A stretch of DNA of 64,000 nucleotides, from the NCBI GenBank assembly GCA_973895155.1, contig OZ316891.1, positions 24,799,899 to 24,863,898 of the forward strand. Reading direction: 5' to 3'. The position numbers and the translations under genes were made by a program. Source of the DNA: Marsupella aquatica. Its lineage: Eukaryota > Plantae > Marchantiophyta. The notes under the pieces are model-generated. The model was not told the DNA's origin. It searched no databases and saw only the letters and a list, made by a program, of their open reading frames with translations. This document shows positions 2,803 to 48,105 of this stretch, piece by piece. The stretch's first letter is position 1. The number at the start of each line of letters is the position of its first letter.

Positions 2803-3701
2803 CGGCGGAGTAGGAATAGATTAGGATTAGGATTGGCTTAGTCAGGCTCTTGGGACAGGCACCTGCCTTAGGTACAGCAGCGCTGCCCTGCTGTCCAGCC
2901 TGCGTAGATTAGGATCTTCTAATAAGACACAGCCGTTTTCCGGCCTGACTGTCAGCTTAGTTAGGACCTTGGTCAGCGGATCTTCGGCGGGAGGACGCCC
3001 CGTTCCTCGGCTCTTAGTATTTAGTGCACCCCTCGGTAGAGGCAAGGGGGGGTTTTTAGTTTCAGAGTCGGACATCCGCGGGACATGCGGGGAGTCCCGA
3101 CCTCTGGGAATGATAGAGTACCAAGGGAAGGGGGTAGGACTAAGCTCGCCGGGCGAGTGCGGAGCCGGGCTCCGTTGTAGTGTGCACCCTTGGCCTTGAA
3201 CCTGTGCATTCCAGGGCTGTCGTGTCAACTAAGTGTACGCATATGTTCCCTTTGTAGTAAAATCCTTTCCCATCATTTTTCCTTCGTGTAAATCGAGATT
3301 GTATGCATGTGTGCGCATATGTGTGTGGGTTTCTCGTATATGGGTGGCAGCGCCGGGCCGAACGCACTACCCGAGACGTGCACAGGGTGCAGCCTGCGGG
3401 TAAGTGGTTGCGAGCACGGGTTGAGGACCTGTATCATCGAATCCGGATTGAAGGCGGACAGCACGAAGGCTTAGAAGCCCTTAAGCCGGGGTCGATCCTG
3501 CTATCGACTAAGGTACGTTCCGGCAGCGGAACACAAACCATACCTAGGAGGTGTCCGTATTTAGCAATATGCGCACTTAGCGCTAGTTTACGAGAATAAG
3601 GTGCATTACGTGCTTCCCTTCCTGCCCAAACCCTCAGATTTACGAGGGATGTGCCCGTCTAAGCTGAAGTCTGAGTTAAGGCCGAAGCCTACGACGTGAC
3701 A
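1666..3701 (+). mobile_element. 3' part of an ORF-containing LTR (family B-like), interrupted on the left by the Athila-like LTR
   Basis: Ends ...CGACGTGACA at 3701, exactly where the minus-strand MULE accessory ORF is cut. It contains the C-terminal half of an ORF homologous to 15425-17875, followed by TTAGGA-rich 3' sequence. Confidence 0.6.
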
Positions 3702-5518
3702 GTCTCTTCGTAATTGAGACTGTCACAAAGTACTGCGGAGTGGGCAACCGAAGCACTGTGCACTATGCCAAACAATCCCTCATCATCAAGGAAAACTCGC
3801 GCAAAATCCTCAACCCGACTGAGGTCGTCTGGCCGGAACAAATTCCACAATGGGATGTTCCCATCCGCGTGCATGCGGGTGTCTGATCCCATTTGAATCA
3901 GAATCAGATTTGCACCAGACCTTGCAGGCTTCCCATTCTTTAGCCAACCTTCTGCAGCCAAACCACCCCGCCTAAGCTTTCTGCACCAGTCTCTAAAATG
4001 GAGTACCACAGCCGGTTCTTTACTGTCATTGGCAACGTCAAAGTAAGTTTTGAAAAGATACGGAGACCATTTAAAATAACAATGCCTAAGCGGGGAAGAA
4101 AAGTTATCGGCGCTTGAACGCCGAACTCCAACCACCTCTGTGCCATCCGACTCCGGTTTGCCTTCAACGTCCTCTTCGTAATTTGGGCCATCCGTTGGGG
4201 CCTCATGTTGGATTGTCGTGGGCGGAACCTCTATTGGGCTGGGCGGGGGTTGCTCTATGGGGCTGGGCGGAATGTCTTCAAGCTCAGTGTCACGTGCTTT
4301 TGCGCGGCGAGGTTTGGGCCTCGTTGTTTTGGTCTTTTTTGCAGCCTTTGTCTTTGGCCTTGAGGATAATGGCATCCATTTTGGCGCCGGAGTATCAGAC
4401 TCACGCCCCTCTTGTTCGTCTTCTCCTTCGTCCTCTACCCGTTTGTCTTCTCCTTCGTCCTCTACCCGTTCATCTTCTCCTTCGTTAGCTACCCATACGT
4501 CGTCTGAATGATCCCCTCCTTGGGTTGCGTTCTCTCCCTGGGATGCATCATGCTCTTGTTCCTGCTCGCTTTGTTGGTCCAGAGGCTGGTCTACCATTGG
4601 CTCTGTCAAAGGCTGCATGCTTTGTTGCTCCACTTGCTGGTTGCCTTGTTGTAGTGTAGCCGGCTCTATCGTTGGTTCTGCAATTGGTTCTGTAGCTGAC
4701 TCTATTGTTGGCTGTGGAGCCTTCTCTATAATTGGCTTTGAAGCCACTTCTACAGCCTTGCTTTTTACAAAACCTGGTTCCTCCGGTATCTCCTTCATAC
4801 CTGGATAGATTGCAAAGCAATGGGGTTATTGATCCTAAGCTTCTCCGCGAGCCTCGCCGACATGACATCCAGACACTTGACATTATACTTCATCTGCAAA
4901 GGTCCGGACGACATTTGGCTGTTCTTCTCAGCGAGCCTCGCCGAGATGAGATCCAAGGGTTCGGACGAGATGCGACTGAAACTTGTTTGTTCTCAGCGAG
5001 CCTCGCCGAGATGAGATGCAGTCTATCTCAACGACCCAAAAATTGGTTCAGTACTATGTTAGCAAACCCAGCCAAGATGTAGTTCCAAATGAAACCACTA
5101 TGCAGTGCAAAAGGAATCGAGTAATACCTGATATTTTTCTTGGACTGGTTAGCGAGTCAGACTGACTGATGTCGCTCGATGGTTCCTTCTCAACCTTCCG
5201 TTCACCTTCTTTTCTGGCCTTCTTCCCGTCATAGGCAGGGTCAGTTGGGATAAGGGTCTCCACCTCTGTTGCCTCCATTACTGAATCTGACAGTTGTCGC
5301 AACTTTGTTATATCGTAGTAATTACTAGGTTCCTGTGCTTCTTTGAGCAGGTCTGCACTATCCTTCTCGACAACCTCGAGAAAAGTGTTCCAATTGTCAT
5401 ACTCCATGTACCATGGGCAGTTCCTCCATTCCCAATCCGAGAATACTCTGCCATGAGGCATGCGACCATCACATGGATACATGCTAAGGCTACCTGTAGC
5501 CTCCATCCAAGGGGCCAT
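3702..5518 (-). pseudogene. Acidic/low-complexity accessory gene of the MULE, at least 2 exons, truncated at both ends
   Basis: ORFs 5054-5518 and 3689-4798. A minus-strand acceptor (...TATCCAG) lies at about 4801 and the intervening segment carries motif copies. The C-terminus is cut by the LTR ending at 3701. Confidence 0.5.
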
Positions 5519-7656
5519 TTCTATCGGGGCCTGTGCACAATCTTTGTTTGTGAGCTGGTTTCAGAAGATAGTGCAGCATTACAAACTGCATGGAAGGTCA
5601 TGAGGAGGGTGTGTGGAGAACATGGGCTTATCAATGTTGAATTTTGTGGCTTTATGGCTGATAATGCTGCTGCTGGGTGGAATGCAATCCGCAATGAATT
5701 TTGGGATGGAAAGGTAAATACCCATAGAGAGAGGTCTGATGCGTTTCACTGGGCCCAATCAGTGGAGAGGGTGCAGAAGCACATTGTCCCACAGAAGAGA
5801 TTTGAGCATAAGGAAATTCTAGATTCGCTTCGACACGCCAACAACATAGTTCTTGCATTTCAAGTTTTTGAGAAGCTTAAGACGTGGTGGAGCGAGGGCA
5901 ACGCACTACCCGGAAAAGCGAAGGAGCTCACAACGTGGATGTCTTGGTGGATTGTTCGGTTTTCTCAATGGGGAAATTTTTTGAGACTCGTAAGTGTCTA
6001 ACGCTTTTCCTCTATATGCATGAAATCCGTCAAATCTTGGCGAAGCTCGCTGACATGGGGTCAGTTGAAGGGATGTTCAATTGGACGACCTCTGTCTGTA
6101 ACGCTTTCTGTCAAATATCGGCGGCGGTCGCCGAGATATGTTTCCAATTGTATTGACATTCTTCTTGGAAATTGTAGGAGATGGACAGAGAAAAGGCTGC
6201 GCTGATGCCTAACCACAGCGGGGCAGAGTCGGTGCATGCGGTCATGCGGAAATGGTCCTCTAATAGAAAGGTTGGGTTAGTACAGTCCTGTAACTTAGAT
6301 GCAACTCGAGCATTGAGCCAGGTTGCATCTTTGGAGCACTACCAACACAGTGGGAGGAAAGGGCGGGGACCGAGCCTATTTGAACTCCGACTTCGAGACG
6401 CTACTGCTGTTGGGAATGTGGAATCTTTCTTTTCAAAATTGAACACAGTTATAACTCAACCAGAATTGCGTAAGTTCTCGTCGGTGGACCCACTTAGCGG
6501 AGATGTAGAAACGGTTTCTATGAAGCACGGGAAGGCCGTATCTGGCGCTCATGTGGTAGTAGAAGATTCACACAGGCCTGACATTGTTCTGGTAACGAGA
6601 CCAAAGAAGAGGAAGTTCAAGGGGGTTGCAAACAGGGACGCAACCTTAAAAAGCACAGATCCTGAAGTTGTGGATCTGTCTTCTGATGGCGGTAGTGGCT
6701 TGGGCGAGCCTGAAGTTGTCATTGTGGACCCTCTCCAACGGACAACAAGGTCAACCCCACATCCGGAGCCCGTCAGAAGACATGTTCAGGAAACTGATTT
6801 GGTGCCAGGGACGTTATTTCTGGCCCGCATCTCAACATGTGGTAAGAGTCCCGGTTGTAGAGGTGCGTTCAAAGGCAAGGAACGGGGAGTATGTGCTCGA
6901 TTTATTAGAGAGGCAGGATTGAAAGTGAGCGGATTGGGTGTTGTTGGTATTTGTTGGCTGGCGGGGAGTAAATTTAATGAACCAGGTGTTCCATATCCGT
7001 ATTGGTTTTGTCCGAACAACCAGTGTTGCACAAAATCCTCTTTGCCTTTCATTACCAGCGTGCTACCACCACTGCCTTCAAAGTTTCCGGTCTCTCGTGG
7101 TACTAATCTTACAGAAGCAGAGGTTATTTTCCTGCACAACAATGGAGTGGATGTCATTTCTGGTGGTGATGTTATGAATGAGGTAGTGAGTGCTGGCGAC
7201 ATCATCATGGATTTGAACACATACCCAGAGCGGCCAGATCCTACAAGGCCTGACGATCGTGGTACTCGCCGCAATGGCCAGGCAAGGCGAAGGAGGTCAG
7301 ACCCCCCCAAGGATGCATTAGCACGTATCCAAAATGCTAAGACCGAGGCCATTGTGTGCACGTCAATGAGGAGAATTGAAATAGGGAATGCTACCGGCAT
7401 AAAGCTCATGGTGAACAACACTAGCAGGGGGCGAACTTCAGTACATTGCGTCCAGATCTGTGTCTTCCCAAGTTGCTCCTGCAAGGATTTCATGTATAGG
7501 GAGTCGATGGGAAGAGCCTACTTCCCGTGCAAGCACTTGTACTGGTGCTTTGCAAACATCTGTAAAAGGGACATTGACACGGATCAATGTGTAAACCAAC
7601 CTATCTTGACTCTAATTGAGGTCCGCGGCCTTGTAGCAAATGCCAATATCGTCTGA
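5519..7656 (+). CDS. MuDR/MULE-type transposase, 5'-truncated; 2 exons (to 5989; 6178-7656)
   Basis: FMADN (catalytic D), DAFHW (CxxH-equivalent), NHSGAESVH (catalytic E) and a C-terminal SWIM finger CSCKDF...PCKH. The intron GTAAGT(5990)...TGTAG(6177) joins the two ORFs in frame. Confidence 0.8.
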
Positions 7657-7898
7657 CATTGTATGTCGGCGACCCTCGTTAACATTGTCTCCTTCTTCAG
7701 GAGATCATCTTGGCGACCCTCACCGTGTCATCTAATCTTGGCGACCCTCGCCGAGTCATCTAATTTTGGCGACCCTCGCCGACGTAACTCTTGAGTCATC
7801 TTGGCGACCCTCGCCAACATGGACTTCAGGGTTGCGGGCCTAGGGTTAGGGGGTTAGGGTTTATAATATGACCGTTATAAGTATAGGGTTACGGATTT

Positions 7899-8627
7899 AT
7901 GTTGGCGAGGCTCAGATTCGACCCTAAACCCGCTTGGGTCCTTGGGATGAGGGTTGTTGCTTTGTTCGAAACTATGGATCCTAGTGCAGGCGGACGTGAG
8001 ATGGTGATTGATAGGACACAAGAAAGGCTTACATCGGAATTGCAGACACTTCTTGCTAGTAAAGAACAAGACCGTGCTCGCATCTGGAATCTCCCCTCCT
8101 CTCGTTATCCCCTACGATGTCGCCCTCCAGCCGGTAACTTGATTCCGGGATTGCCTGATGATCATGTGGAGTTGCACATATGGCCCCGGATCCGATCAAT
8201 GTTGGAAGATGTTGTGCTTGTGGATGCTCCAGTGAGGAATATGTGCCTGATGGTGCGGTCTGTTGCGCATATCAACAGGAAATGGAGATATTTGATAACA
8301 AACTCCATAGCATGGGCTGCAATGACTACTGCTGTGATATTTTGTGCCACAAGATGGCCTGAATTGACACCTCACTTCTTTCGTGAGTCAATGAGAGCGT
8401 TCCCACCGATTGATGTTTGGGCTCGGTTGGCTGATGATATCTTAAATGAGAGGATCGATTCCTGGTTATTATGTGATTCGGAGGAAGCGGACTGTTATCT
8501 GTCGATATATGGTGTTCAGCAAGAACGAGTAGATGCTTGGAAAAGGACTCGTCTTGATAATTGGTACACTGAGCAGGTTCAGGAAAGACTTGATCAAGGT
8601 GTAAGTGTCAATCGTGACAACTTTTAG
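7899..8627 (+). CDS. F-box-like protein (MULE cargo, paralog 1)
   Basis: 242-aa ORF with LIPGLPDDHVELHIWPRI...VAHINRKWRYLI, an F-box-like signature. Confidence 0.6.
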   Translation: MLARLRFDPKPAWVLGMRVVALFETMDPSAGGREMVIDRTQERLTSELQTLLASKEQDRARIWNLPSSRYPLRCRPPAGNLIPGLPDDHVELHIWPRIRSMLEDVVLVDAPVRNMCLMVRSVAHINRKWRYLITNSIAWAAMTTAVIFCATRWPELTPHFFRESMRAFPPIDVWARLADDILNERIDSWLLCDSEEADCYLSIYGVQQERVDAWKRTRLDNWYTEQVQERLDQGVSVNRDNF

Positions 8628-8821
8628 GTGCACTTCATATCATTATCGGTTTAGTGTATAGAATACGCAGGAGTACGCCACACCTGGTTCAGATTTAGAG
8701 ATCATGGACTAATTTTGTACGACTTTTTTGAGTAATAAATACTTGGCGACATGAGATCCTTCCTATCTTTCACTATCAATTCTCGGCGAGGGTCTTTGAC
8801 ATTTGGACCGTTTAGGGTTTA

Positions 8822-8842
8822 CCCTAAACCCTAAACCCTAAA
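8822..8842 (+). promoter_or_regulatory. Telo-box-like (CCCTAAA)3 upstream of F-box paralog 2; a similar TAGGGTT cluster at 7841-7863 precedes paralog 1
   Basis: Three tandem plant telomere-type heptamers in the intergenic region. Confidence 0.35.
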
Positions 8843-9415
8843 CACGTACCCCCTATACTGGGCCGTAAATCCTAGACCCTTGCGTACTTCCCTTGCGTAC
8901 TTTCTTGTTTAGTCCGTTAACAAGATGTACGTTGTCAAGTATAGTTGGGATGTCCCGTATCCATGACGTAGTTTTGTGCGGTGCGGTACGTGCGGTACGT
9001 GCTCCCTTCTTCCTTACTCTTCCTCTTCCTCTTCACTCTTTGTTAGGGTTTTCAACGTCCTTCTCACTTATCCCTGCGCTTGGTTGAATTTCTACACTTT
9101 GACATTCATCGCACTGGGCAAAAATGACATCGCTGTTCATTTCTTAGGGAGAGCCTCCCCACGAAGGCAGACGTTCTACGCCCGTTGCGCGACCGGCGCG
9201 TAGCCCCTACAGGGTCAAGATCAACCCGCAGACTTCGCAAGTGGAGACCGTCGAAACCAATATGTCAATGTCGCTATCGTTATAAAGAGGAGGGCACTTT
9301 CTCTATTCTTCATCCGCTTGTTCGGTTGGTTGGTTGTTGTGTTCAATTTGTTGGGTGTCATCTTCATCTCACGGGTGCTTCAAGCGGCTAAACTTGCTTC
9401 AAGCGGCTCTCCAAC

Positions 9416-10126
9416 ATGGAAGGATCATACACAAAGAGGCGTTATCATGAAAAGTGCACTACAGGCCTTGATAAGTTTACGGCGACAATTACTGAGCTGA
9501 AATTGAAAGCTGATTTTGATCGGCTCTCAATATGGGGGACTGTTGGGGAGCCTATTCCGGAGGAAGCAGAAGAAGCAAAAAGGCAAAGTCTCATCCATGG
9601 CCTCCCGGATATGCTGACAGAGGGACATGTTTGGCCTCTACTTAGAAATGCATTTGAGTCTGCAAATGCACATGGCACTGATGATGATGCTACCTTCAAG
9701 ACGATCGACAACATGCGCATATTGTCCAGAGTTAGTAGGAAATGGAGATTCCTTGTGACTCACTCCAAGGGATGGGCAGCGTTAAAAGTGGTGAAGGACG
9801 TCATTAAAAACATGGACGACAACCGACATTGGAATCGTCACTCAACCGCGTGTACGTTCCGTGTTCTCTTATGACAAATTCCGCCTATTGATGCCCTCTC
9901 TATGATGTCAGTTATATCACTCAAGTCTTGGGTGGCAAACTACGTCTGGAGGACGAAGATAATTGAGAGGGATCTGTACGATAAGTTCTTCGATGGAGAT
10001 GTGCTAGGAAGAGTCCAGGACTGGGTGGAGAACAGGTTAACCCCAATCTTATGGTGTGACAATGTAGAAAAATTGCCGAGCAACAATCCGGACAGTGGCT
10101 ACGGGCTTTATTCTAGTGATATTTGA
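9416..10126 (+). pseudogene. F-box-like protein (MULE cargo, paralog 2) with one internal stop
   Basis: LIHGLPDMLTEGHVWPLL...LSRVSRKWRFLVT parallels paralog 1. ORFs 9416-9874 and 9902-10126 are in the same frame, separated by TGA. Confidence 0.6.
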
Positions 10127-10431
10127 TTGTGAAGGCACAGGAGGTCATCGCGGATAGCATTGTCGATAGGGTCCACTGGCCACTAGGTCATGTCATGACT
10201 TGAACTCATCACGTAGTAATGAGGTCAGGGGTAGCATCATGGACTAATTTTGTATGACATTTTTCAATAATAAAAAAGCTTACGTTATCGTACTATTGGT
10301 GTGGTCTTTTTTCCCTCCCGGCGGTCTCGCCGACATCCAAACGGCACCATTGGAATTCGGCGAGGGTCTCCAAGATGTAGTGTTCGTGAATGCTACTCAC
10401 CTTGGAGACATTCGCCATTTGTCGGATCTGA

Positions 10432-11150
10432 GTGACCCTTGCCGAAATGGCACTGAAACCGGATGTCAGCGACCCTCGCCAAAATGGCACTGAAATCGGA
10501 TGTCAGTGACCCTCGCCGGAATGGGACTGAAACCAGATGTCAGCGACCCTCGCCGAAATGGCACTGAAACCGGATGTCAGCGACCCTCGCCGGAATGGCA
10601 CTAAAACCAGATGTCAACGACCCTCGCCAAAATGGCACTGAAACCGGATGTCAGCGACCCTCGCCAAAATGGCACTAAAACCAGATGTCAACGACCCTCG
10701 CCGAAATGGCACTGAAACCGGATGTCAGCGACCCTCGCCGGAATGGCACTAAAATCGGATGTTAGCGACCCTCGCCGGAATGGCACTAAAACCGGATGTC
10801 AACGACCCTCGCCGAAATGGCACTAAAACTGGATGTCAACGACCCTCGCCGAAATGGCACTGAAACCGGATGTCAGCAACCCTCGCCAAAATGGCACTGA
10901 AACCGGATGTCAGCGACCCTCGCCGAAATGGCACTGAAACCGGATGTCAGCGACCCTTGCCAAAATGGCACTGGAACTGGATGTCAGCGACCCTCGCCGG
11001 AATGGCACTGAAACCGGATGTCAACGACCCTCGCCGGAATGGCATTAAAACCGGATGTCAACGACCCTCGCCGAAATGGCACTGAAACCGGATGTCAGCG
11101 ACCCTCGCCGAAATGGCACTGAAACCGGATGTAGTGACCCTCGCCGGAAT
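10432..11150 (+). repeat. Tandem array of a 37-bp unit, ~19 copies (GGCACTGAAACCGGATGTCAGCGACCCTCGCCGAAAT)
   Basis: Unit starts at 10449, 10486, 10523, 10560 ... 11115 give an exact 37-bp period with no unique spacers. Confidence 0.95.
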
Positions 11151-11692
11151 GGAACTTCGCAGGAATGGAACTTCGTCGGAATGGAACTTCCCAACCGGAT
11201 GTCTGCGATCCTCGCCGAAATTGCACTTACCAAGGAAAGTAAGAAACTGGATCTGAGAGACCCTCGCCGAAATGGAACTTAGGATCATAATTTTGACCGT
11301 TGCCGAGTGAGAGAACCACCAGATCTTGGAGACCCTCTCCGAGATCTACTTACACCCTAAACTCTTTGTCATCAAACTAACAAAGAAGTCGCTGGCGTCT
11401 AATCTCAGAGATCCTCGCCGAAATGGGATTACGTAGTAACTGTGGAATCATACGCTCATATAGTGCCAAAAACTAATCCTGACAGTCTTGACCGTTGCAG
11501 GTCAAATCAACATTAACTCATTTGTTGGCCAAACCTGGAGTGTGTGTGAAAAGACATGTACCCGTTATTACGAGCGGACGTTGTTGTCCCTTCAACCGTC
11601 TAGGGATAGGATACCAATAATTGCTGGATTTTTAGTGGCAATGATGATGATTGTCTTGTACGTTGCAGGTCACCACAACACGGACTAGATAG

Positions 11693-12483
11693 ATGGAGGT
11701 GAAGGCAATGTGGCAGCGCGGTGCGCCCTACAATTTTTCACCTTCTTTCTCATCAGGGCAGAGCACCATGGCCAGAGTGGAGTCTGTGATCGGTGTCCAA
11801 GACAGGCACACACCCACTGTCTTCGCCGTTTTGGACGTCGTCCCGCAGAAGAGGAAACGAGGTCGGCCGAGGAAGCATCCCATCGTAATGTCGATAGCGT
11901 TACCTGATCATTTCTCCTCGGCTCTTGACAGAGAAGAAGAAACGAGGTTGGCCGAGGAAGCATCCCATCGTAATGTCGATCGCGTTACCTGATAATGAAG
12001 CTCCTCGGCTCTTGGCAGAGAAGAGGAAACGAGGTCGCCCCAGGAAGCATCCTATTGCAATGGCTACCACACTGCCAGACGGTGATGGTGAAGCTCCTCG
12101 TCTGTTGAGATCTCCAGATAATTGCAAGGCTGTTGGTGATGCAAACAGAATGAACGAGACGTTGAAGATGCCCGTAAACGGTGCAGCTAAGTTCCGCGGT
12201 CGTGACAACACAACCAACCACAAGGACTCGCCTAGTGCCCGAGTGTTCGAAATATGCTGATGTTGACTTCGTGTTTGCTAAAGAGTTGCTGAAGAGTTTG
12301 GATGCAGAGATCGCGGACAGCAAGTCAGACTTCCAGAAGCTTATGAGCCTTCATGTAGATGTGCAGGCTAGGCTATCTGAGATGTGTGACAACGTCCAGA
12401 ATCTATGGGTAAAAATGAATGACCTCCTCTCGGCAAGAGCTGAATTGGGGGCGTTCATTGGAGTGAATGTACAAAAAACATGA
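11693..12483 (+). pseudogene. AT-hook (x3) plus C-terminal coiled-coil protein, frameshifted (MULE cargo)
   Basis: KRKRGRPRKHP repeats are encoded by ~85-87-bp tandem units at 11846-12060. Overlapping ORFs 11693-11992, 11925-12260 and 12181-12483. Confidence 0.6.
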
Positions 12484-13310
12484 ATTTCGTGTACACATTT
12501 ACTTGTAGGAAATAGAGGAACGTTGTAGCCTCAAAGTTTTGATACATTTTGGTAGTTACTGAATCGTTCGTCGGTAATGATTTTATGGAGTGTCAAATTA
12601 AACTGGACGATAATAGTAGAAATCCGTCTAATCGGCTGTGTAATCCAGTTCTTATAAAATATTTTGTGCAGATTAGGCAGCTTAGTTATACATTACTGAA
12701 TCTGTCGTGGTAAAGTCGGCGACCCTCGCCGAGAGCATTTTCCTCGGGGCTTGACAAGTAGGAGTAGCAGTCTCTTGACGATGTCTTCTCGGCGAGCATC
12801 GCCAAGGAATGACAATGAATTCATGCTACCTTTTCTTATAAGCTCTCTTATTGGGCAAACATCTTGATCTTCTGGTGGTCGCAACTGATCCCAAGGATTC
12901 TACACTACATCACAATTCTCGTTGATTACTTCTTTCAAGGCTGGCACCACCAGCAGCCTAGTAGTAGTATCTCGATGATGTCTTCTCGGCGAGCATCGCC
13001 GATGAATTACAATATATGGGTTGTAAAATGTTTTTCTAGTAAACATCATGTCGACCTTATGTCGGCGACCTCTTTGACATTCTGGCTATGGTCGCCTAAA
13101 ACTGTACGGACACCGCCTTTATGCTTATTGCTTTGCGTTTCAAGACCGTAAACCCTGAATCAGAGATGTTTGCAAGTTTGCCGAGATCCCCGGGCCAATC
13201 TGAGCACAGTCGCCGACATGGAGGTAAGTGTTAAGCGCGACGAGCAATGACTGATATCAGTGACTGATATCAGTTATCAGTCACTGATAACTGATGATGT
13301 ACCTTTACTC

Positions 13311-15017: not shown

Positions 15018-18000
15018 TGTGACACGGGTAACGTGTCACTTGACCGAACCCAGGTCGTAGATTAGGACTTATACGGTCATTAGGACTGTAGCCATAGCAT
15101 AGAATAGCACGTATAGCCATCAAGTTGCCATTATGATTAGATTAGGAGTAGGTTAAGATAACTGCATAATTACGAGTTCAGGAAAGGGATTATTACGCAT
15201 GACCGAGGTACGGTGGCGGCAGCGGAGTAAAAATCAGTTAGAAGAATCACGCTTGGACCGAGGTGCCGACTTCAGCTCGTTATCAATGACCAAACGGCCT
15301 GACCTTCTCACGCTCGGGCTCGTCCTGGCACCCCCATAAGAGAGGAGCCGATGGCACTGTGGGCCATTCGCTCATATTTACCTTTTTGGAATTTGCGGAC
15401 GCTGCCATCCACTCGCCTTCTTGATTGAATCCAGTCGACCTTTACGAGGAGATTATCAAGGGAGAAGAGCGGAATGTGGCGAGATTTAGTCAGGACGAGC
15501 GAGGCCTCCGCGAAAGAGGACCAGCCAGGTGGGAACGTGAACGCAACGAACCGGACTACGAGGTTAGTATGACCCTCACAGCCTTGGGATTTTGGACCTT
15601 GTTTGGTGAGGTAGGTGCTAAGTTCTCCGAGACTTACTGGTACTCTTGCCCCGAGAAAGCCGCTTACAAACGAAGGTACGCGAAGCTGGTAACCAAGGTA
15701 GCACTGGTTAATTGCGAAAGGACAGCCATCACCAGGGATTCTAGCTACAACGAGCTGCGAGACTACATCACCGAACTATATCTCAGCAAGGAAGGGCTTA
15801 GATCAGTAGCAGAGGCGATTCTTGAGGTTCCAGCTAAGTTCTTTAAGCTGAAGGGCAACCAGCGGCTTACTCAAGCGGAGTTCGACAAGATTCCGGGGTA
15901 CCTAGACCAGCAGATCGCAGCCGAACAGCGCCAAGAAGACATCAGCAGACAACGGGAAGCGGCGCATAATCTCACGTTTCTCGGGGAAAGCTCCAACGCC
16001 TTCAACTGGGATATGGCTACCCCAGTGCCTCAACCGATGACCACTGGACTACCGCCAAACCAGTCCCAAGTCCGTCCAGTAATCAACACGGAGTGTTCTT
16101 CGGGTTCCGAGCGAACTAGTCTGCAACTCGAACAGCATCCTCGTAAGCGGCCAAGGACTACGACGGCCCCCGAGCCAACAACACGGGCCGACGCCGCACC
16201 TGCACCTGCCCCGGCAAACCCCCCGACCAACCAGACCCGACGGCCCCCGGATAACCCGAAGTCCAACTTATTACAGATAATCCGCGTCCCCGAGGTAGTC
16301 TGGATTGCGATCAAGAAACTCGAACATGCGGACTATCTCAAGGAGCATCAGTTGGAGCGGTTTGCCCACTTGCTATGGAGGCCGTGCGCCGCCGGGCCGA
16401 AGGAGATTTGTGAGTTCATCTCCAATTTCAACACTGATGCGTCGACCACCAAGGTTTCAGGGCAGGTCTTATCACTCACAGAGCATCGGTTAACGCAAAT
16501 TTTCTGCCTACCAACCGGGCCGGTGCCGGTGGAAATCCGAATTTGGGATAAGGAGTATACGCCGCGGCACTTCAAACCCGAGGGTAAGACGGACAACGGA
16601 TACAAGCAGGGGGCGTGCACCAACTTAACCTGTATGGAGCGGCTTAACTTCATACGGACTACCCTACACATGATTGAGCCACGATCCGAGATTTCCCTCT
16701 GCATGATCGTGCAGGTGGAACAGTACAAACGACGAAATTGGGCCCAATTCTTCTACCGAAGATTCTCGGGGGAGCTGAAGCGGGCTCAAGGTGGTATGGC
16801 TATTGGAGGGAAGACTTACTTGGGAAGTCATATCGCCATTATCCTCGCCTGGTACAAGGCACGGCGGCAGGCCAGAGGAAAGAATATGGCCACCTCAGCC
16901 CCGGGTAATGTCACCCCCGGCCCAAAGGAGGCAACCCCGACTACGCGGACTACCGTCCCTCGGGCAAACCCCAAGCCGGAAGCCCCGACTAATACTCCGC
17001 AACCGCCCCCTGTGGAAATTCCACTGCCTCCTTCCATTGAGCCTCCGCTACCTGCAGTACAACCACCCCCAATCCCTCCACCACCTGAAGAAACCTTCCC
17101 CTCCCCAGCGCTGACTACGGAGGAGCTCATTGCCCCTGCCGAGGAACCACCGGTACCCGAGAGGATGGAGGACTACCAAGTAGCCCCGGGGACCATGGCC
17201 TATGACCTGGTCCACAAGTTTAGCCAGACTATGTCTGGGGAGCTGGCGACATACATCGGACAACAAGTCTCGACGTACTTTCAGCCAGCCTTCTTCATGT
17301 TAGAGCACCAACCACGGATCGTCAGCCGCTTGGAAGAAGAACTCATGGCGAAGGGGAATGAGATCGGGCGTCTCCAGATGCTGGTAGAGCACCTCGAGGA
17401 GGAGGCAACGACCCGCCGCGAGGATTTAGTCCGCACTGTCGAACAGAGGGACGGACTAACCCAGGAGTTAAGCGGAGCGCAGGCCGAACTCAAGAAGCTG
17501 GACGACACCGTGCTTCAATTACGCTTAGAATCTTCGGCTCGGGTTACCAGCCTGACCAACCTCAACAAACAATTCCTACAGGCAGCACAGCAGGTGGCTG
17601 GTCTCTCCGCCGAACAAGATAAATTGCTAGCACAGGACCAGGTCCATCGCGACGCCATCGACCAGCTCAACTTGGAGGTGGCGCGGCTCCAGACTGAAGC
17701 CGATGAAGCTGCAAACGAGGCGGAGGAAGCAGTACGGGACAACAAGGCTTTGCAGGACCGCGTCACCCTGCTCGTCCTCCAGCGGGGAAAACCTGGGGCC
17801 ACCTCTGATCAAGGCGGCTCGAGGTCTCGCCCCGACAAGGGGACCAGCCCTGGTCCAACCACTGCACACACGTAAGGGGTGGTTAGCGAAGGGTAGAAGC
17901 AGGCGCCGCGCGAGGCGGTTAAGTCAGCGGCATCTTTTGGTTAGGCGTAACGACAGAATGACTGTCATTAGGCACCGATTAGCGGCAGTAGGAAGAATTA

Positions 18001-26186: not shown

Positions 26187-29100
26187 TGTGATGCCTAGCC
26201 AGGAATCACTTGGCTAGTTTAAGTGGAAAAGGGAAGGGTACCCTAGAAACACCTTAGTATAGTTACAGAAATAAGGAAAATATAAACAATTAAGGGTGAC
26301 TATGGAACCCGAGCCGAGGCCGGAAGTAAGGACGCCAGGGGAGAGAACACGATTAGGGTTAGGGCATGATAAGTGCCGGCGGCTAGGGGTCACCAACGGG
26401 ATAGAAACGCCAAGGAGGAGAGGGGTAAGGGCAGCTCGCGAGGAGTTGTGGCTCATTTGCAGGCACAAACTGGGCAGACGACTACGGGCGGCCAACTACT
26501 GTCAGCTGCTTAAGCAAGCACTCAAGGGGGGAGCAGATACCGACTATCAACTTGATAAGGGTATGAGCAACATCAATCAAGCAGCACATTTTTGGGGATG
26601 CCTGTTCGAACGGGCAACTGAGTACATTGGGACTTACGAGGACGAAGAATCGGAGAGAGCAGCTCGAGAACGGCAGGAGCTAGCTTAGTTGTGGGAGCCG
26701 CAGAAAGCTACCTTCTTAGGAGGAGAACTCATCAAGGCCGAATTCTTGTGGACTCCTACTACCAATCAACTCGACGACCTTCTGTTTTGCGAAGACAGAG
26801 TTGTCGGCATCCGCGAGGCCATCAAACGCTGCAACGACATACACTGGGAGTTGAAGGGTAGCACGGAGGGGTGGACAAAGGCAACCGTGCTCGGAGAGAC
26901 ATCCACGGCAGCCGAGATGAAGAGGAAGGGAATTAACAACGACGAGGCCACCCCGACAAAAAGAACAAGGTCGGTGGCACCAAAGAGGCCAACCGAACAG
27001 CAGAGCAGGAGGCAGAGAGAAGCCGAGGAGGAGGAGGTCGACCCCATCAACACCATTCCAACGAGAGATGACACCTGGAAAGGCTAGGCGGCGATCCTCC
27101 CCAAGGAGGTCCAATTACACTTTGCAAGAGAGGAGGATGCATGCTTTACGGCTATGCAGACTCGGAAATATCAGGGCTTCATGGCTGGATCCGGCTTGGA
27201 AGCCTTTGTAAGGTTACCGTGGCTGAAGCTGGAGGTGCCGAATTCAGACTTACTTGAATTCGTGGGATCATGGGAGTCCGAGACCAATTCCACAAGGGTG
27301 TATGGGAAGGAATTCTATCTCACTCCCTAGGTGATTGCCGAAGTGTTTGGCTTGCCGATGGGCAATAAGACCAAGGTAGATACCAAGAAGACCTTGCCAG
27401 ACACGGAGTTCAGGTCGTTCCCAGGGCCTTCAACAAAGAATGGCTTCTTCCGTAACACTTGCACCAACCCGCATATAGGAGAGATGATCGATTTCTTGCG
27501 GGTGACCATGCATTGCAACTGGCCAAGAGCAGAGATTGGCAAGGCACAGGTCTATCTGGCAGAGAGGCCAGACCCAAACCGGGACTACAACGGCTACCTC
27601 CTCACTCAACTAAAGAAGATCTTGAAGGAGGAACAGCTGGTGATCGGCAAGGGAAGCGTGTCCCGGCTTGGCTATCACATGCCGCTATTGTGCCGGTATG
27701 CCCAAAGTAAGACCTTTGCCCCGGTACTTCCCCTACAGGCAAGGGCATCAGAGGAGGTTCCAGAACAGAGGCCGGCAACGGAGAAACCCAACCCGCCCAA
27801 CAGTCCTACAATCGAGCAGGTGTTTAGGCCAAGGACGGAGGACTTGCCGATGCAGCAACCAGGCATGCAGAATCTGCTGAAACTGCTGGAGAAAGAAAAG
27901 AGATCGGCATCGGCAACGACAACGGCATCGGCAACAACAACGGCAACGGCAACAATGCAGGACACTACTCCAGAGGTAGGCCTAAACCGGCTTACAAGGG
28001 AAAACCCCTTTACTGGAGTCAAGGAGAGAAGGAGGCCGGAACACGAGCCGGGAGTCCAGATGTATGTAGGAGCCTCTAGTCCCAAAGCCAAGGAGAAGCA
28101 GGCCGTAACTCCCGGCCACGACAAGGAGAACAGGAGATCAACACGGAAGCCGGAGGAGGAACCAAGACCGGCAGGAGGTGAAGCCGTGTTCACGCCAAAA
28201 CCAGGAGAGGAGCGGGAGAAGCCGGTAGTCCAAGCCGAGGAGGAGGCGGTGGAGGACTACAACAATGATAACTCCGGCTATGGGTCGGATCATCATGTTC
28301 CAGGTTTAAGGACATGTGGCCCCGGTTCATCCCCACGCTCCCAAGAGTAGTCCGAGGGGACCCGAGCCAGCAGAGCAGCCCCGAGTCTCCCCCGCCAGAT
28401 GTCACTCCCCCGAGCTTTGACAGCATAAAACAGACAGCGCAGGAATTTCAGGAGCGAATCAGGGAGGAAGAGGAGGCAGCCCTGGCTAGAGAGAAGGATT
28501 TACCAGGAGGAGAATGGCCAGAGAACATTAGGCGGCTTGCAGAAAAACGAGGCAGCCCGCCAGCCACAATAGAAGAGATCCGCAAGGCGGCTTGGGAACA
28601 AAGGCCGCGATGGATGATGCCGATGACTTCTACTTCCTCCACCTATGCTAAAGATAGAGCCATGGAGTACGGGGAGATGTGTGGGGAATTGGCGCTCAGC
28701 ATCTTTGGGGAGGAGTTGGAGCAGGGACCCTTTTTCCAGAGGGAGATGTTGGAGAAGCGCCAATTAGAAGAAGCAGTGGCCTTGGAAAGAAGCAAGAAGG
28801 ACGAGGTCATCCGTCGGCTTAGGGAAAGGGAAGCCAAAATCAAGGACCTGAGGGCGGCCAAGAAAGCCCAAGATGAGCTGCGGATTAAGCGGCATGAGCT
28901 AAATATCATGCAGGGCCAGTTGGATACCACACAATCTGATAATCGGATGATCGAGAATCTACTGATGCAGACCCAAGGAGAGTTGGCCGATGCAATCAAA
29001 GAGAGGGAGAAGTGGAAGCGAGAGCTGAGGAATGCAGAGGAGGCCCACATAACAGCCAACAACCGGGCCATGGCGGAGACCCAAAGAAAGGAATGGGCGT

Positions 29101-30920
29101 TGAAGGGGGAGCTCAAGAAAATTTGCGGAGCCCTTGAGCAGAAGGAGGCCGAGTTAGGGAAATCCTATCAAGGGATTATTGCGCTGCAGCAGGAGCTTGC
29201 GTCCCTGACGGCCAGCTTCAAGGCCGACCTAAGGGAGAAGGACGATATGCTCGATCAGACTTACGCCAAGATGAACTAGATGGAGTCTGTCATCATTGCA
29301 GAGCTCGACAAGGAGCTAAGAGCAACCCGGGAGGAGAGGGCTACCTTGAAGAAAGAACTGGAGGAAGCCCACAAGGAACGGGAGGAAGCCCAGAAAGAAC
29401 TGGAGGAGGTGCGCAAGGACCTGGACGAGGTGCAGGAGGAGTTGGAGGAAAGCACGCGGAGGCTGGAGAACTTACAACGACGAGCCGACAACCAAACGGA
29501 GCGACTGAAAAAACAAACCGTAGTATTTAAGTGCTTGTCTTCATCAGGCCCAACTCCAATTGGGGCAACCAAGTTACCAGGAGTGGTACTGGCCGAAGAA
29601 CAAGACGCGCCACCTGCACCAGTGCCGGAAGTAAGTGGGAAGGGGAAGGGACCAGCTGCCGAACCAGAAAAGAAGAAGAAGCGGAAACCTTCAGGGTCAA
29701 GGAGTAATACGACTCCACAGGCCGTGGTGACCAAGGAGGTAGACCCAGCACCAACCCCAGACAGGGTCACGGCAAAGGATCCAACTACCCTAGAAGGAGG
29801 GGAGGCCGAAGCCATGGCTGAGGCCGAAGCCGTTGCTGATGCCGAGGCCGGTGCCGAGGCCAAAGCCGAAGGTGGACCCAGTCAGGCCGATGGAGAGTTG
29901 ACTAAGTCCGGGGTAGGTAATCTGTCAGAGAACGAACCTACGACAGTGGCTGAGGAGGAAGCGTTGGGGGCGTCCACTGAGGAACAGACACCGCTGCCAT
30001 GACGGTGGTGGAGGGCCGCTCCTTTCAAGGAGGGCGGACGTGGAGGGAGGAGGCATGAGTGGGCAAGGCGGGCTCGGATCTCTAAGTTTAGGATTAGGAT
30101 CAGGACGAGGAGGCGGCCCTGACACTTAGCTTAGTGGGATTGCGGTTCCACTGGTAAGAGCAACACTTGTACTCCTGCCTTGCTGTACATAGGTAGATTC
30201 AGTTAGGTAGATTCAGTTAGGTAGATTAGGCTTACGCTGCAAGGAATTAGGCGGATCCACTACCAGGATAAATACCTGGGCTACGGGGAGCTCAGGGCCT
30301 CTTCTTTAGCAAGTTTTTAGTTTGCACCAGCCGGGCTGGGATCAAGTAGTAAGAGAAGCTCTCGGTTAGTCATACAGTGACCTTGTGTATATTCATGTTT
30401 CCTCATGCCTAAGAGCTGAATAGAGTTGGCCTCACGGCTTAGTTCGTAGAGCTTGTGTATGAGATGTACTATTTGTATGGCAAGTGCATGGTATGACTCA
30501 GTCAGAAGGAGTCATTTTACTATTTGTGTGTTGCATTAACTTGTGTGAAGAGTGCCCACATCAACTAATAGATGAAGGAAAGTAAGCAAGGGAGTGAGAG
30601 TTGGATGTGTCGAGCTGAGAGAGGTCTTAGCGGCTTAACCAAGCCTATTGGGGATCATTCTGGCGGCGGAATCCAAATATACCTAACCAGAAGGAGAGGA
30701 AGACAAGGGAAGGCCTAGATTAGGCCGGCTACATATCTCATGACCCGATGAAGGATCTGTCCAGTATATGTGTGTAAAATGTTAATAGTAGTAGTACAAG
30801 GAAGTTAGCAGCGTCCCATGCCGCTAAGCCGCAAAAACGGCCTCCCCAAGCGCGAAACCTGCGGGAATCGGCTTGTGCTGGGGGGTTTCTTGGGTTTAGG
30901 GAGCCATGGGACGCACCACA
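26187..30920 (+). mobile_element. 3' LTR of the family-A element (4734 bp) containing a long ORF
   Basis: Runs TGTGATGC...GCACCACA, is preceded by the PPT, and its 3' end matches the LTR end adjoining the PBS at 19669. Confidence 0.92.
26296..30002 (+). pseudogene. LTR-encoded ~1200-aa accessory protein, disrupted copy
   Basis: Collinear ORFs 26296-26688, 26689-27087, 27331-28350, 28314-29279 and 29280-30002 match the 1116-aa ORF; disrupted by TAG stops and one frameshift. Confidence 0.85.
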
Positions 30921-31241: not shown

Positions 31242-34200
31242 TGTGGTGCGTCCCATGGCTCCCTAAACCCAAGAAACCCCCCAGCTCAAGCCGATTCCCG
31301 CAGGTTTCGTGCTTGGCGAGGCCGTTTCCGCGGCTTAGCGGCATGGGACGCTGCTAACCTTCTACTACTACTATTAACATTTTACACACATATACTGGAC
31401 AGATCCTTCATCGGGTCATGAGATACGTAGCCGGCCTAATATAGGCCTTCCCTTGTCTTCCCCTGTCTTCCCCTCCGTCTTGTTAGGTATGTTTGGATTC
31501 CGCCGCCGGAATGATCCCCAATAGGCTTGGTTAAGCCGCTAAGACCTCTCTCAGCTCGACACATCCAACTATCACTCCCCTGCTTACTTTCCTTCCTTCT
31601 GTTGATGTGGGCACTCTTCACACAAGTTAATGCGACACACAAATAGCAAAATGACTCATTCTAACTGAGTCATACCATGCACTTGCCATACAAACAGTAC
31701 ATCTCATACACAAGTTCTGCGAACTAAGCCGTGAGGCCAACTCTATTCAGCTCTTAGGCATGAGGAAACATGAATATACACAAGGGTCACTGTATGACTA
31801 ACCGAGAGCTTCTCGTACTACTTGATCCCAGCCCGGCTGGTGCAAACTAAAAACTTGCTAAAGAAGAGGCCCTGAGCTCCCCGCTGCCCAGGTACTTATC
31901 CTGGTAGTGGATCCGCCATTCTTTGCATCGTAAGCCTAATCTACCTGACAGTAATCTACTTGCCCGAATCTACCTATGTACAGCAAGGCAGGAGCACAAG
32001 TGTTGCTCCTACCAGTGGAACCCCAATCCCACTAAGCTAAGTGTCAGGGCCGCTCCTGGTTCTGATCCTAATCCTAAACGTGGAGATCCGCGCCCGCCCT
32101 GCCCACTCACGCCTCCTCCCTCCACGTCCGCCCTCCCTAAAAGGAACGGCGCCCTTGCACCGTCACGACACCGGTGGTGGATCCTCAATGGACGCCCCCA
32201 ACACTTCCTCCTCAGCCACTGCCGTTGGCCTGCCTACTGACAGATTACCTGCCCTTGACCGAGTCAACTCTCCATCGGCCTGACTGGGTCCACCTTCGGC
32301 TTCAGCCTCGACAACTCCCACGGCTTCGGCTTCAGCCACCCCCACGGCTTCGGCCTCAGCCAACCCCACGGCTTCGGCTTCCCCTTCCCCTAGGGTAGTT
32401 GGATCCTTAGCCGTGACCCTGTCTGGGGTCGGTGCTGGGTCTACCTCCTTGATCACCACGGCCTATGAAGTCGTATTACTCCTTGACCCTGAAGGTTTCC
32501 GCTTCTTCTTCGTTGGTGGCTCGGCAGCTGGTCCCTTCCCCTTCCCACTTACTTCCGGCACTGGTGCAGTTGACGCGGCTTGTCCTTCGGCAATTACCAC
32601 CCCTGGTAACTGGTTTGTCCCAACGGGAGATGGACCTGCTGCAACTAAGCATTTAAATACTGCGGCTTGTTTCTTCAGCCGCTCTGTTTGGTTGTCGGCC
32701 CGCCGCTGTAGGTTCTCCATCTTCCTCATGATTTCCTCCAACTCCTCTTGGGTTTCATCCAGGTCCTTACGTGCCCCCTCCAGCTCGTTTTTGGCCTCTT
32801 CCTGCTCCCTGTGGGCTTCCTCCAATTCCTTCTTCAAGGTAGCCCTCTCCTCCTGGGTTGCTCTTAGCTCCTTGTCGAGCTCTGCAATGATGACAGACTC
32901 CATCTGGTTCATCTTGGCGTAAGTCTGTTCGAGCATCTCGTCCTTCTCCCTTAGGTCGGCCTTGAAGCTGGCCGTCAGGGACGCAAGCTCCTGCTGCAGC
33001 GCCATAATCCCTTGATAGGATTTCCCTAACTCGACCTCCTTCTGCTCAAGGGCTCCGCGGATTTTCTCGAGCTCCCCTTTCAACGCCCATTCCTTTCTTT
33101 GGGTCTCCGCCATGGCCCGGCTGTTGGCTGTTATGTGGGCCTCCTCTGTATTCTTCAGCTCTTGCTTCCACTTCTCCCTCTCTTTGATCGTGTCGGCCAA
33201 CTCTTCCTGCGTCTGAGTCAGTTTATCCTTGATATTCTGATTATCAGCCTGCGCGGCGTCCAACTGCCCCTGCATGATGTTCAGCTCATGTCGTTTAATC
33301 CGCAGTTCATCTTGGGCTTTCTTGGCCGCCCTTAGATTTTCAATCTCGGCTTCCATCCTCCTAAGCCGCCGAATGACCTCGTCCTTCTTGCTTCTCTCTA
33401 AAGCCACCGCTTCTTCTAATTGGTGCTTCTCCAACTGCTCCCTGTGAAAAAAGGGTCCTACCTCCAACTCCTCTCCAAAGATGCCGAGCGCAAGTTCCCC
33501 ACACATCTCACCATACTCCATGGCTCTATTCTTAGCGTAGGTGGAGTAAGTAGAAGTGATCGGCATCGCCCATCGTGGCCTCTGCTCCCACGCCGTCCTG
33601 CGGATCTCTTCAATCGTGGCTAGAGGTTTGCTTCCTTTTTCGGCTAGCCGCCTGATGTCCTCCGGCCAATCTCCTCCTGGTAAATCCTTTTCCTTAGCCA
33701 GGGCGGCCTCTTCCTCCTGCTTGATTCGCTCCTGAAATTCCTGCACCGTCTGTTTTATGCCGTCGAAGCTCGGGGGAGCGACATCTGGTGGGGGAGACTC
33801 AGGGCTACTCTGCTGGTTGGGGTCCCCTCGCACTACCCTTGGAAGTGTGGGGACAAACCGGCCACAGGTCCTTACTCCTGGAACGTGATGGTCCGACCCA
33901 TAGCCGGAATTATCATGGCTGCAGTCCTCCACTGCCTCCTCTACCTCTTGGACGTCCGGCTTCTCCCTCTCCTCTTCCTCGGTAGGAGCTTCAGGCAATT
34001 CTGCCTCAGATTCGGAGCTTGAGGTTCCCACGTACATTCGAACACCTGGCTTGGATTCCGGCCTGATTCTCTTCTTGTCTCCAGCAAAGGGGTTTTCTCT
34101 TGTGAGCCGGTGTAGGCCTACCTCTGTAGTAGTGTCCTGCATTGTTGCCGTTGCCGTTGTTGTTGCCGATGCCGATTTCTTTTCTTTCTCCAGTAGTTTC

Positions 34201-46400: not shown

Positions 46401-48105
46401 AGTGGGCGTGGGTTCTGGTTCCGGCTTATGGCGTCGGGAGGACCTATCGCTGACCTATTTACCAACGTCTGTTGAGCTTGAGTTAGGATGCTAGACTTGG
46501 CGAGTTCTAGATCCCAAAGGGTTATTTACCGAGGTGCTTGGTTGCTTGTGCAGACTGTGAGAACCGTTGAGTAGCGATCGTGGTTGAGAGCAAGTGCGGC
46601 TTCGTATGGGAGGGGCCGCTGGTGGTGCAGGAGGCACTACTTAGGTGCTTGCTCCAGGTATTTCGTGGAGGCGTTTGGGCACTATGGGCACTTAGGCGTG
46701 GGTGCTGGGATTGGTGAGGGCGCTGGGTGGTGAGGTCCACCACTAGGATGATGTCACATAAGTATTTTCTCATATACGATGTCAGATCAGTATCATCTCC
46801 TATACTTTGTATTTTACTATTAAAATGAGCATATCATTTGACATACCTGGTCAATCAATCCAAGAGTACCAAAAAATCTTTGAAAACAGCTGACTGGCCA
46901 GGTTTGTTCCCTCCATTTCTGAATTTGTAAGCAGACGAAAGAGCTTTTTGGCGCATTGCATATTATAGAAGTAGATTGTTTTTACAGTTACAAGGTCTAA
47001 CACTTTTTCTTGGACTTTTCAAATACACATAGTCTTGTTTGGTGCTTTTTGCATAACAACCTTTTCTTGTTTATGACCAATAGTGTTGATGTGACTACAG
47101 GTGCTTCCAGGAATTTTGGGAGGTACTTCCCATGAGGGTCTGTAACTATGTTTCACCTCTACCTATTTTTTACCTCTACTTGTTTTGATTCTCTTTCTTT
47201 TTTCTTCACATTTCAACACAAACCCAGATTTCATGCAAGTTCAGATTTTACTTTCTTTTACCAAGAGGCAAGTAGAGGACAAATCTAAAAATCCCCTTGC
47301 ACTAAGTAGACCTATCCACAAAGGTGCTGACTGTTTTTGTGCAAGCTGTACGAAATGGTTTGATTCAATATACAACCTATCCACAAACTTGCTTAATCAA
47401 ATTACAGCTACCCATATAACTGCGAACTGTTCCAATACTCTCCCCCTTAAACTTCTCCAGGGTTCCATGGTCCACTCATTTTTTTCCTCTAAAGTGAGAG
47501 TCTACTCCACAATTTCAGGAAAAACTTCTTGGTTTCTAATGAAATTTGGTTCCTATGGGTTACTTGTAGCTCTTGAAGGAGCAGCTCTGATTGAAGTGCA
47601 CATTAAATGCTTCTTCCAACGAATGTGCACTTAGAGAGCTACTACTTCGTCTAGGGAGTGTGCACTTAGAGAGAGAGAAGACTGTAACAGAATCGCCCAC
47701 ATGAAATCAATTAAGCACAAACTGGTGACCATAGATCATTACCAACAAACGAGGTTTGACGGGATCAAACAACATCATGCCCATTTCAATTGTTGCGCTG
47801 GATAATAGGTAGGCAATGGGCAATTATGCGACAGCAAGCAGATAAATCAAATGCGTTTGTGGAAGGGTCGGTGACCAACGAAAAACGCGGTTCGGTTATG
47901 TGTTAGCTCCTTCAATTCGTCTTCTTCTTCTGTGACACCAGAGAGCTCTGGCTCCTGCACTGAAGACTTCGGTGGGGAGAAACATCTGAAATCTATATAT
48001 TTGTCTCACATCTGAAGTAGGACACACGAAAGTTTCTTTCCCAAGGATTTAAAGATTAATACCACCTAGTACGTCTAAGTTCTCCAGCTTGAGACAGTCA
48101 CAGAG

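Follow-up and report, generated by a model that had tools for sequence, protein, structure and literature searches.

The Locus and Its Borders

The analyzed window is a stretch of 64,000 nucleotides (nt) from the liverwort Marsupella aquatica (contig OZ316891.1, positions 24,799,899 to 24,863,898). At positions 3702 to 13310 it contains a multi-copy Mutator-like DNA transposon with a transposase gene and four cargo genes (A to D), of which the copy in the window is broken. The non-coding DNA of this element is filled with copies of a palindromic motif, which are here interpreted as probable binding sites of a protein encoded by the element.

An earlier note on this DNA had placed the start of the element at 3702. 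This position was found to be the junction with an inserted long terminal repeat (LTR) retroelement. The end of this retroelement (3000..3701) lies outside the element, cuts gene A and moves the true left end of the transposon beyond the window; its LTR edge, TGTCACG, begins at 3701 on the minus strand. Contigs from four of six public runs, none of the six being recorded as RNA (X1, X2, X3 and X6 among the run names), were compared over two stretches that leave out the tandem array described below. Two of them, X2 record 9 and X3 record 17, match the window from 3702 and then have 440 and 35 other letters, respectively, and the contig depth falls approximately 100-fold at this junction. A hairpin at 3698-3728 consists of the LTR end and gene A coding sequence, and 3702 was rejected as a true terminus. 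The right terminus is located at 13296..13310. Host Gypsy-like sequence restarts at 13311, where the likeness to another Gypsy-like copy in the window begins and where the empty-site contigs diverge as well.

In addition, an internal deletion junction was found at 5511..5515, which fuses the truncated gene A (minus strand) to the truncated transposase gene (plus strand). In runs X1, X2 and X3, loose contig ends occur at 5511 and 5515, and the window sequence is left in both directions. The letters ahead of 5515 in these contigs encode the transposase residues that relatives hold at this place, and X2 record 11 continues for 800 nt behind 5511. This divergence indicates that three parts are missing from the window copy: the N-terminus of the transposase with the first catalytic aspartate (Asp), the beginning of gene A at its 5′ side, and the divergent promoter that lay between both genes.

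The four non-transposase genes described earlier are present; three of them (A, C and D) are broken in the window copy and gene B is intact. The earlier proposal depended on the cargo being carried by other copies too, and in X1-X3 each of the four genes is matched by numerous variant contigs. One contig of 1252 nt reaches from the end of the transposase gene through a motif cluster into gene B. Contig depth gives no copy number, but the family clearly has multiple copies with common cargo.

The Palindromic Motif

For the palindromic motif, the earlier observation of its recurrence in introns, spacers, the array and subterminal DNA was confirmed. Using a symmetric weight matrix with a score of 14, 38 copies were detected inside the element and none in the 54 kb around it, which comprise retroelement sequences and host DNA including a host gene region; at a score of 10, two matches were found outside. 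The matrix was seeded on 12 non-coding sites, which makes this enrichment partly circular. The perfect form GGCGA-NNN-TCGCC, previously regarded as the usual one, turned out to be a minority. It occurs at 6 sites in 64 kb (four GGCGACCCTCGCC and two GGCGAGCATCGCC), all at 7740-13000, compared with an expected number of 0.02 and with 0 of 100 shuffles that reached 6. Allowing one mismatch, 27 sites were found in the window, 25 of them within 3702-13310. According to the alignment of the sites, the true repeat unit is a 23-bp palindrome, ATCTCGGCGA-N3-TCGCCGAGAT, with 10-bp arms.

Half of the copies (19 of 38) belong to a 37-bp tandem array of 19.9 units at 10423-11156. The 19 non-array copies lie in the two introns, in each of the three spacers and in the subterminal DNA, and the scarcity in exons reported before proved to be a complete absence from 5.5 kb of coding sequence (binomial P 9e-9, which is likewise partly circular). 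The gene A intron contains three copies (centres 4852, 4936 and 5001) and the transposase intron two (centres 6045 and 6126). Five copies, with a 28-bp period in part, lie in the spacer between the transposase gene and gene B (7663..7820), and one copy lies in the spacer between genes B and C (8780..8802). The motif-rich spacer (10354..11424) starts with one copy, followed by the 37-bp array with 19 scored copies and then by four further copies. In the subterminal region (12713..13219), motif centres were found at 12724, 12797 and 12994 and half-sites at 13068, 13178 and 13210. The copies in these six separate non-coding regions have unrelated flanks.

The half-site TCGCC[GA]A, counted without weights, occurs 29 times in the 3354 nt of non-coding DNA of the element and 11 times in the array. 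The coding DNA (5517 nt) has no occurrence, and the 54,395 nt outside the element have 5. From these numbers, the exons are at background level and the non-coding DNA of the element is enriched approximately 90-fold. Among the changes between array units, 29 of 37 are C>T or G>A, which is the pattern expected of methylated DNA. In viral contigs, the motif was matched only 7 times, each time singly, and these matches were taken as chance.

The earlier note had also proposed a comparison of the motif across related families. A metagenome scan with 402 pattern matches led to two related loci, L001 and L002, both of which have an intron with palindrome clusters at the same place as the transposase intron of the window (5990-6177). 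The L002 transposase is 69% and 62% identical to that of the window over two exons, and its intron carries six near-variant copies, in which the outer 8 bp are retained and the core differs. For the L001 transposase, the identity is 55, 39 and 35% over three stretches, and the intron contains three copies of an unrelated 24-26 bp palindrome, TATTGCTAGCGCCGGCGCTAGCAATA. In cross-searches, the window motif found 6 of 6 L002 sites at 4 mismatches, the L002 motif had no match in the window at 3 mismatches, and the L001 motif had none in the window or in L002. The motif differs between the related families, with three families compared. At L001 (1172-1231), a near-perfect hairpin of 60 nt with 29-bp arms is centred on the L001 palindrome, inside the transposase intron.

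The Transposase and the Terminal Palindrome

The transposase gene on the plus strand consists of an exon remnant (5515..5989), an intron (5990..6177) and the last exon (6178..7656). The remnant contains the second catalytic Asp (5662-5664, within GFMAD) and a DxxH motif; the first Asp and the DNA-binding region are deleted. The catalytic glutamate is encoded at 6226-6228 in the last exon, which ends with a SWIM-like CxC..CxH finger at the C-terminus. A C/DxxH motif after the second Asp is a signature of the Mutator superfamily and its Mutator-like elements (MULEs), and the DxxH motif (D644, H647) was found to be invariant in 10 of 10 aligned transposase sequences.

Nine transposase relatives were identified among 146 candidates, and the named cargo or transposase relatives stem from Calypogeia and Riccia. 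The transposase relatives extend several hundred residues further in the N-terminal direction, where the full-length ones are rich in cysteine and histidine (Cys/His-rich). For a relative of 737 amino acids (P0002), a model of low confidence (predicted local distance difference test, pLDDT, of 37) was compared by Foldseek. The top four rows were the ISCth4 transposase with a best E-value of 3.3e-4, which we take to be of the IS256/Mutator type. No MULE match was found for the transposase in Pfam, and the SWIM-like finger remains under the cut-off (Pfam SWIM, E 0.33). When the transposase alignment was used as the query, none of 108 candidate stretches from prokaryote genomes and 97 from viral contigs proved to be a relative, and nothing at useful E-values was obtained among solved structures. 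Judged by sequence and model comparison, the predicted protein has the RNase H-like DDE fold and the DxxH/SWIM features of the Mutator/MULE superfamily. The hallmarks of this superfamily listed in the relevant passages of PMC6446971 are a target site duplication of 8-11 bp, terminal inverted repeats and the SWIM finger.

The right end carries a palindrome of CTGATA units (13248..13295) with arms of 13-15 bp, which is unrelated to the internal motif; the last full copy of the latter sits 300 nt inside the terminus. Contigs sharing the CTGATA palindrome carry unrelated sequence on the inner side of 13250, and their end, 12 nt beyond 13298, is a similar terminal word. In run X6, the terminal palindrome and the conserved transposase stretches are deeply covered and the interior of the element barely. 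The end of the element follows the CTGATA palindrome after 12-15 nt, and many contigs from all four runs share this palindrome with unrelated flanks on both sides, which suggests an end signature common to the superfamily or numerous non-autonomous relatives. The CTGATA palindrome is likely the site of the transposase, a putative assignment that would leave the internal motif to serve something else.

Gene A

Gene A is located on the minus strand. The exon 1 remnant (5128..5511), whose 5′ part is deleted, encodes a conserved domain with no assigned fold. The intron (4801..5127) has GT..AG borders and phase 1, and the reading frame is kept. Exon 2 (3702..4800) encodes an acidic/proline linker with short peptide repeats, followed by a degenerate domain similar to beta-class amino-methyltransferases, which is cut at 3702. 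Both exons match the Calypogeia protein P0013 of 559 amino acids (E 8e-23 and 4.7e-9), the first one at 37% in BLASTP. That exon 1 might be a transposase gene fragment in inverted orientation was considered and rejected, since it matches P0013 and not the transposase relatives.

For the C-terminal domain, 12 relatives were found at an E-value of 0.001 among 1.8 billion proteins, and in this set the domain leads to the Riccia protein P0020 at E 2.8e-4. P0020 carries the name N-4/N-6 DNA methylase domain protein and matches PF01555 (E 3e-5) as well as phrog_67 (one member of A4; E 8e-9). It aligns with phage methylases over the whole domain with a probability of 98%, and a homologue search starting from P0020 returned P0020 alone. 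A profile of 12 sequences of the gene A clade without P0020 scores this protein with 48 bits, compared with at most 5.9 bits in 2000 shuffles, and hhalign of the clade profile against P0020 gave 98.8%. Gene A relatives other than P0020 stop near the next likely intron. Through the link of P0020, it is likely that gene A descends from beta-class N4C/N6A DNA methyltransferases.

The tetrapeptide QMGS (3895-3884) aligns with DPP of P0020 and with DPPY, DLPY and DPPF of the phage enzymes. This catalytic motif position is degenerate across the gene A clade, P0020 itself having DPPT. The gene A product is likely a catalytically dead protein with a predicted amino-DNA-methyltransferase fold. One of the effectors proposed earlier was an acidic protein; the acidic linker does exist, and the protein as a whole is better described as a degenerate protein of the amino-DNA-methyltransferase fold. 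P0017, P0020 and P0022, Riccia and other plant-like proteins, represent a broader clade whose beta-class methyltransferase domains are degenerate; even P0020 has DPPT and not DPPY.

A Possible Self-Recognition System

Summed over the candidate binders, the palindromes are probably cis-acting sites for a dimer encoded by the element. A narrower proposal is tentative: the element may possess a self-recognition system similar to that of VANC, the anti-silencing protein of the VANDAL elements, and made of different parts, in which the pseudo-methyltransferase of gene A would be the predicted binder, mark members of the family as self and counter host silencing. The two half-sites would be read independently by a dimer, the dense arrays in introns and spacers would supply avidity, and the transposase would use the separate terminal palindrome. 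Gene A, which is divergent to the transposase gene, would bind the CG/CCG-rich motif and either shield it or recruit demethylation. The F-box-like genes B and C, together with the AT-hook and coiled-coil gene D, would act as putative helpers. Gene A is preferred because it is the sole cargo gene related to DNA-modifying enzymes, because, as in VANC, its conserved domains are arranged around a linker rich in repeats, and because the transposase seems to own the terminal site. It is rather doubtful, if conceivable, that an amino-DNA methyltransferase of bacterial type, from the enzyme class responsible for 4mC in the sperm of Marchantia, became a non-catalytic, sequence-specific reader in a Mutator lineage of liverworts and co-evolves with the family-specific palindromes of introns and spacers. 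In that case, early land plants would have an independently invented anti-silencing system derived from a component of restriction-modification.

Several points weigh against a role of gene A as the reader of the palindromes. The part of the protein expected to hold the regions for S-adenosylmethionine binding and target recognition is cut off at 3702. The match between the profile of the gene A clade and 10 phage methylases is weak (probability 5%, E 0.008), despite an identical register, and no clade member except P0020 matches PF01555 in the Pfam search of the gene A open reading frame (ORF) and its 12 relatives. The model of P0013 is of low confidence (pLDDT 51) and has no significant fold match; in the fold search no match reached E 0.001, the best Z of 5.5 fell on N-terminal helices, and the search is uninformative on a methyltransferase fold. 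Among solved structures, the gene A alignment hit low-complexity stretches only. A site with 20 specific base pairs is long for a reader of the methyltransferase fold. Conservation in the array is scarcely higher for the motif (21 changes in 23 positions) than for the linker (16 changes in 14). Furthermore, the comparison of relatives is a small sample of three families, and it ties the change of the motif to the change of the transposase only, the L001 and L002 loci being too short to include cargo.

The same divergence of motif and transposase in three families speaks for the transposase as the binder. Its N-terminal zinc-finger region, Cys/His-rich in the full-length relatives, would bind the palindromes and activate or organise cognate copies, and the cargo would have no part in recognition. 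In the passages of 10.64898/2026.08.24.746577 on these proteins, the AtMu1 transposase binds cognate copies and hypomethylates them on its own, and both AtMu1 transposase and Spm TnpA act at terminal motif clusters. The recognition of dense, family-specific motif clusters by an element protein, predicted here, would be shared with these systems. Unlike their clusters and hypomethylation, which are terminal, most copies in the window are internal, the terminus has a different palindrome that is more widely shared than the interior, and the last full motif copy keeps its distance from the end. Overall, binding by the transposase is less likely than binding by gene A, of which it is the main rival. 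Binding by a host transcription factor or chromatin protein, whose site the element amplified for its expression, is quite improbable. Dimeric host factors typically use palindromic sites, and genes B and C are flanked by telo-box-like words, which are a feature of host promoters. Against this stand the wholly different sequences in L001 and the window family, which a fixed host factor forbids unless the hosts differ, and the absence of copies from the flanking host gene region. Among the cargo proteins, gene D might bind the arrays, or the F-box-like genes B and C might degrade host silencing proteins, either of which appears very improbable. Gene D adjoins the main array and has a dimerising coiled coil, and its repeat number is variable, as are the repeats of VANC in the passages of PMC5735166 on this protein. 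The AT-hook and F-box matches of these genes are under the Pfam cut-offs, and the core of the motif is G+C-rich. AT-hooks favour A+T-rich minor grooves, and the AT-hook protein named earlier as an alternative effector is a poor candidate for such a site.

Two further explanations dispense with a protein. The motif could be a neutral or selfish micro-repeat, i.e. a seed spread by slippage or conversion or a tiny insertion element, which is tolerated outside exons only. Consistent with such an origin, half of the copies are concentrated in one tandem array, where their conservation does not clearly exceed that of the linker, and one L001 copy forms the middle of a hairpin whose arms measure 29 bp. 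It is nevertheless improbable in view of the occurrence in six non-coding regions with unrelated flanks, the lack of any copy in 54 kb of flanking DNA and the filling of the same intron with a 23-26 bp palindrome in each of three families. A function of the palindromes as RNA or DNA hairpins would agree with the perfect arms of 8-13 bp in the L001 and L002 copies. Most window copies have several unpaired positions, and the arms were analyzed for covariation in the 19 non-array sites and one array unit. Here, 145 of 200 cells were paired, compared with 145.8 for randomly re-paired arms (P 0.63), and 5 compensated cells contrast with 55 unpaired ones. Each arm drifts around TCGCCGAGAT on its own. 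This lack of co-variation favours a dimeric protein site over a hairpin; the hairpin function was rejected on this ground and is barely credible.

Comparison with Known Systems

The following comparisons refer to the passages of the cited sources that deal with the respective systems. VANC binds motifs of 8-9 bp amplified in non-coding regions and contains DUF1985 and DUF287 (PMC5735166). Shared with VANDAL/VANC (PMC5735166; PMC10398659) are a Mutator-type element with extra genes, a short motif amplified, often in tandem, in introns, intergenic and terminal non-coding DNA, a motif that differs between related families and an effector, here the candidate gene A, with conserved domains around a variable, repeat-rich linker. 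Unlike the directional VANDAL word of 8-9 bp, the motif of the window is a 23-bp palindrome. The transposase is distant and has no Pfam MULE match, the candidate effector is methyltransferase-like, and the host is a liverwort in comparison with Arabidopsis. DUF1985 and DUF287 had no match at E-values up to 1 in the cargo ORFs, in which gene A is truncated, or in the 12 gene A relatives including P0013. The VANDAL/VANC-like character assigned earlier is thus found in the architecture, with its amplified motif in a multi-gene Mutator-like element, and not in homology to VANC.

In red algae, Plavaka elements and the Mutator elements of Chondrus bear a PF01555-SET gene along with arrays of inverted repeats (10.1101/2025.02.11.637652). 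A methylase gene of the PF01555 type on a DNA transposon and tandem inverted-repeat arrays, for which an element-encoded binder is proposed there, are similar to the element described here, with gene A as the probable relative of such methylases. In the red-algal cassette the methylase is fused to SET, and the proposed binder is a ParB-like/2OG-oxygenase protein (10.1101/2025.02.11.637652); no SET, ParB or 2OG match was found in the ORFs of the window copy, where gene A is incomplete. Moreover, the palindromes of the window also fill introns. These two systems are the closest analogues of the element, which is VANDAL/VANC-like in layout and a member of neither VANDAL/VANC nor the red-algal Plavaka cassette, with two traits shared with the latter.

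Marchantia DN4MT1 (10.1101/2021.02.12.428880) and rotifer N4CMT (PMC8885841) are active host writers of N4-methylcytosine with an intact catalytic motif, TSPPY in Marchantia. They represent the enzyme class of the nearest recognisable relative of gene A, DN4MT1 also coming from a liverwort. In contrast to them, gene A is transposon-borne and has QMGS and an extra N-terminal domain. An inactive methyltransferase domain has been described for DIRS1 retrotransposons (PMC4738411), which likewise represents a transposon-borne and likely dead amino-methyltransferase domain. It differs by its methyltransferase group and its place in a retroelement polyprotein, and the passages on DIRS1 mention no motif arrays. 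In the literature covered, mostly outside subscription journals, no liverwort or land-plant Mutator element with a methylase-like gene or an anti-silencing motif was found.

Self-recognition of transposons by sequence is proven in a few flowering-plant elements and only proposed in the red-algal ones. If the proposed role of gene A holds true, a parallel liverwort system with a different protein fold would mean that this strategy arose repeatedly, and a reader of a 23-bp palindrome that relieves silencing would be a tool to keep transgenes active. A direct test is within reach, since three variants of the motif occur naturally, the candidate proteins are few and the plant group includes a tractable model. 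Even with the transposase as the binder, family-specific palindromes in introns represent an unusual cis-architecture.

Genes B, C and D and the Remaining Window

Gene B (7974..8627, plus strand) is an intact ORF of 218 amino acids with a putative F-box-like pattern at the N-terminus. It has one homologue, P0010 (67%), and no Pfam match. Gene C (9416..10126, plus strand) is a paralogue of gene B (30%) with a premature stop at 9872, which is absent from other copies (T>C in X1-X3 and X6). The match of gene C to the F-box family PF00646 reached 14.1 bits (cut-off 20.5; E 0.048), compared with none for gene B, and the alignment of both proteins gave nothing at useful E-values among solved structures. 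Gene D (11768..12483, plus strand) encodes three AT-hook-like repeats (Pfam AT_hook E 0.092, under the cut-off), whose number varies among copies, and a C-terminal coiled coil. Its frame is broken twice, and other contigs carry insertions or deletions at both breaks.

Upstream of genes B and C, telomere-repeat-like words (TAGGGTT / AAACCCTA) were observed at 7840-7930, 8810-8850 and 9043-9052. A segment of 39 nt is present downstream of both gene B (8701-8739) and gene C (10236-10274).

Outside the element, several copies of retroelement-associated long ORFs with coiled-coil ends were found (1603-2802, 15425-17875, 27331-30002, 32463-35828 and 38585-41086), with no Pfam family in the two that were scanned. 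At approximately 48100-52620, a multi-exon host gene has a cytochrome P450 heme-binding pattern, as read by eye, and introns without a motif copy. The region 57600-64000 is a second gene-rich stretch with several unannotated ORFs and short tandem repeats, which may be another transposon with cargo. It includes an ORF for a phosphatase of the NIF/FCP1 type at 61791-62882 (PF03031, E 1.7e-16).

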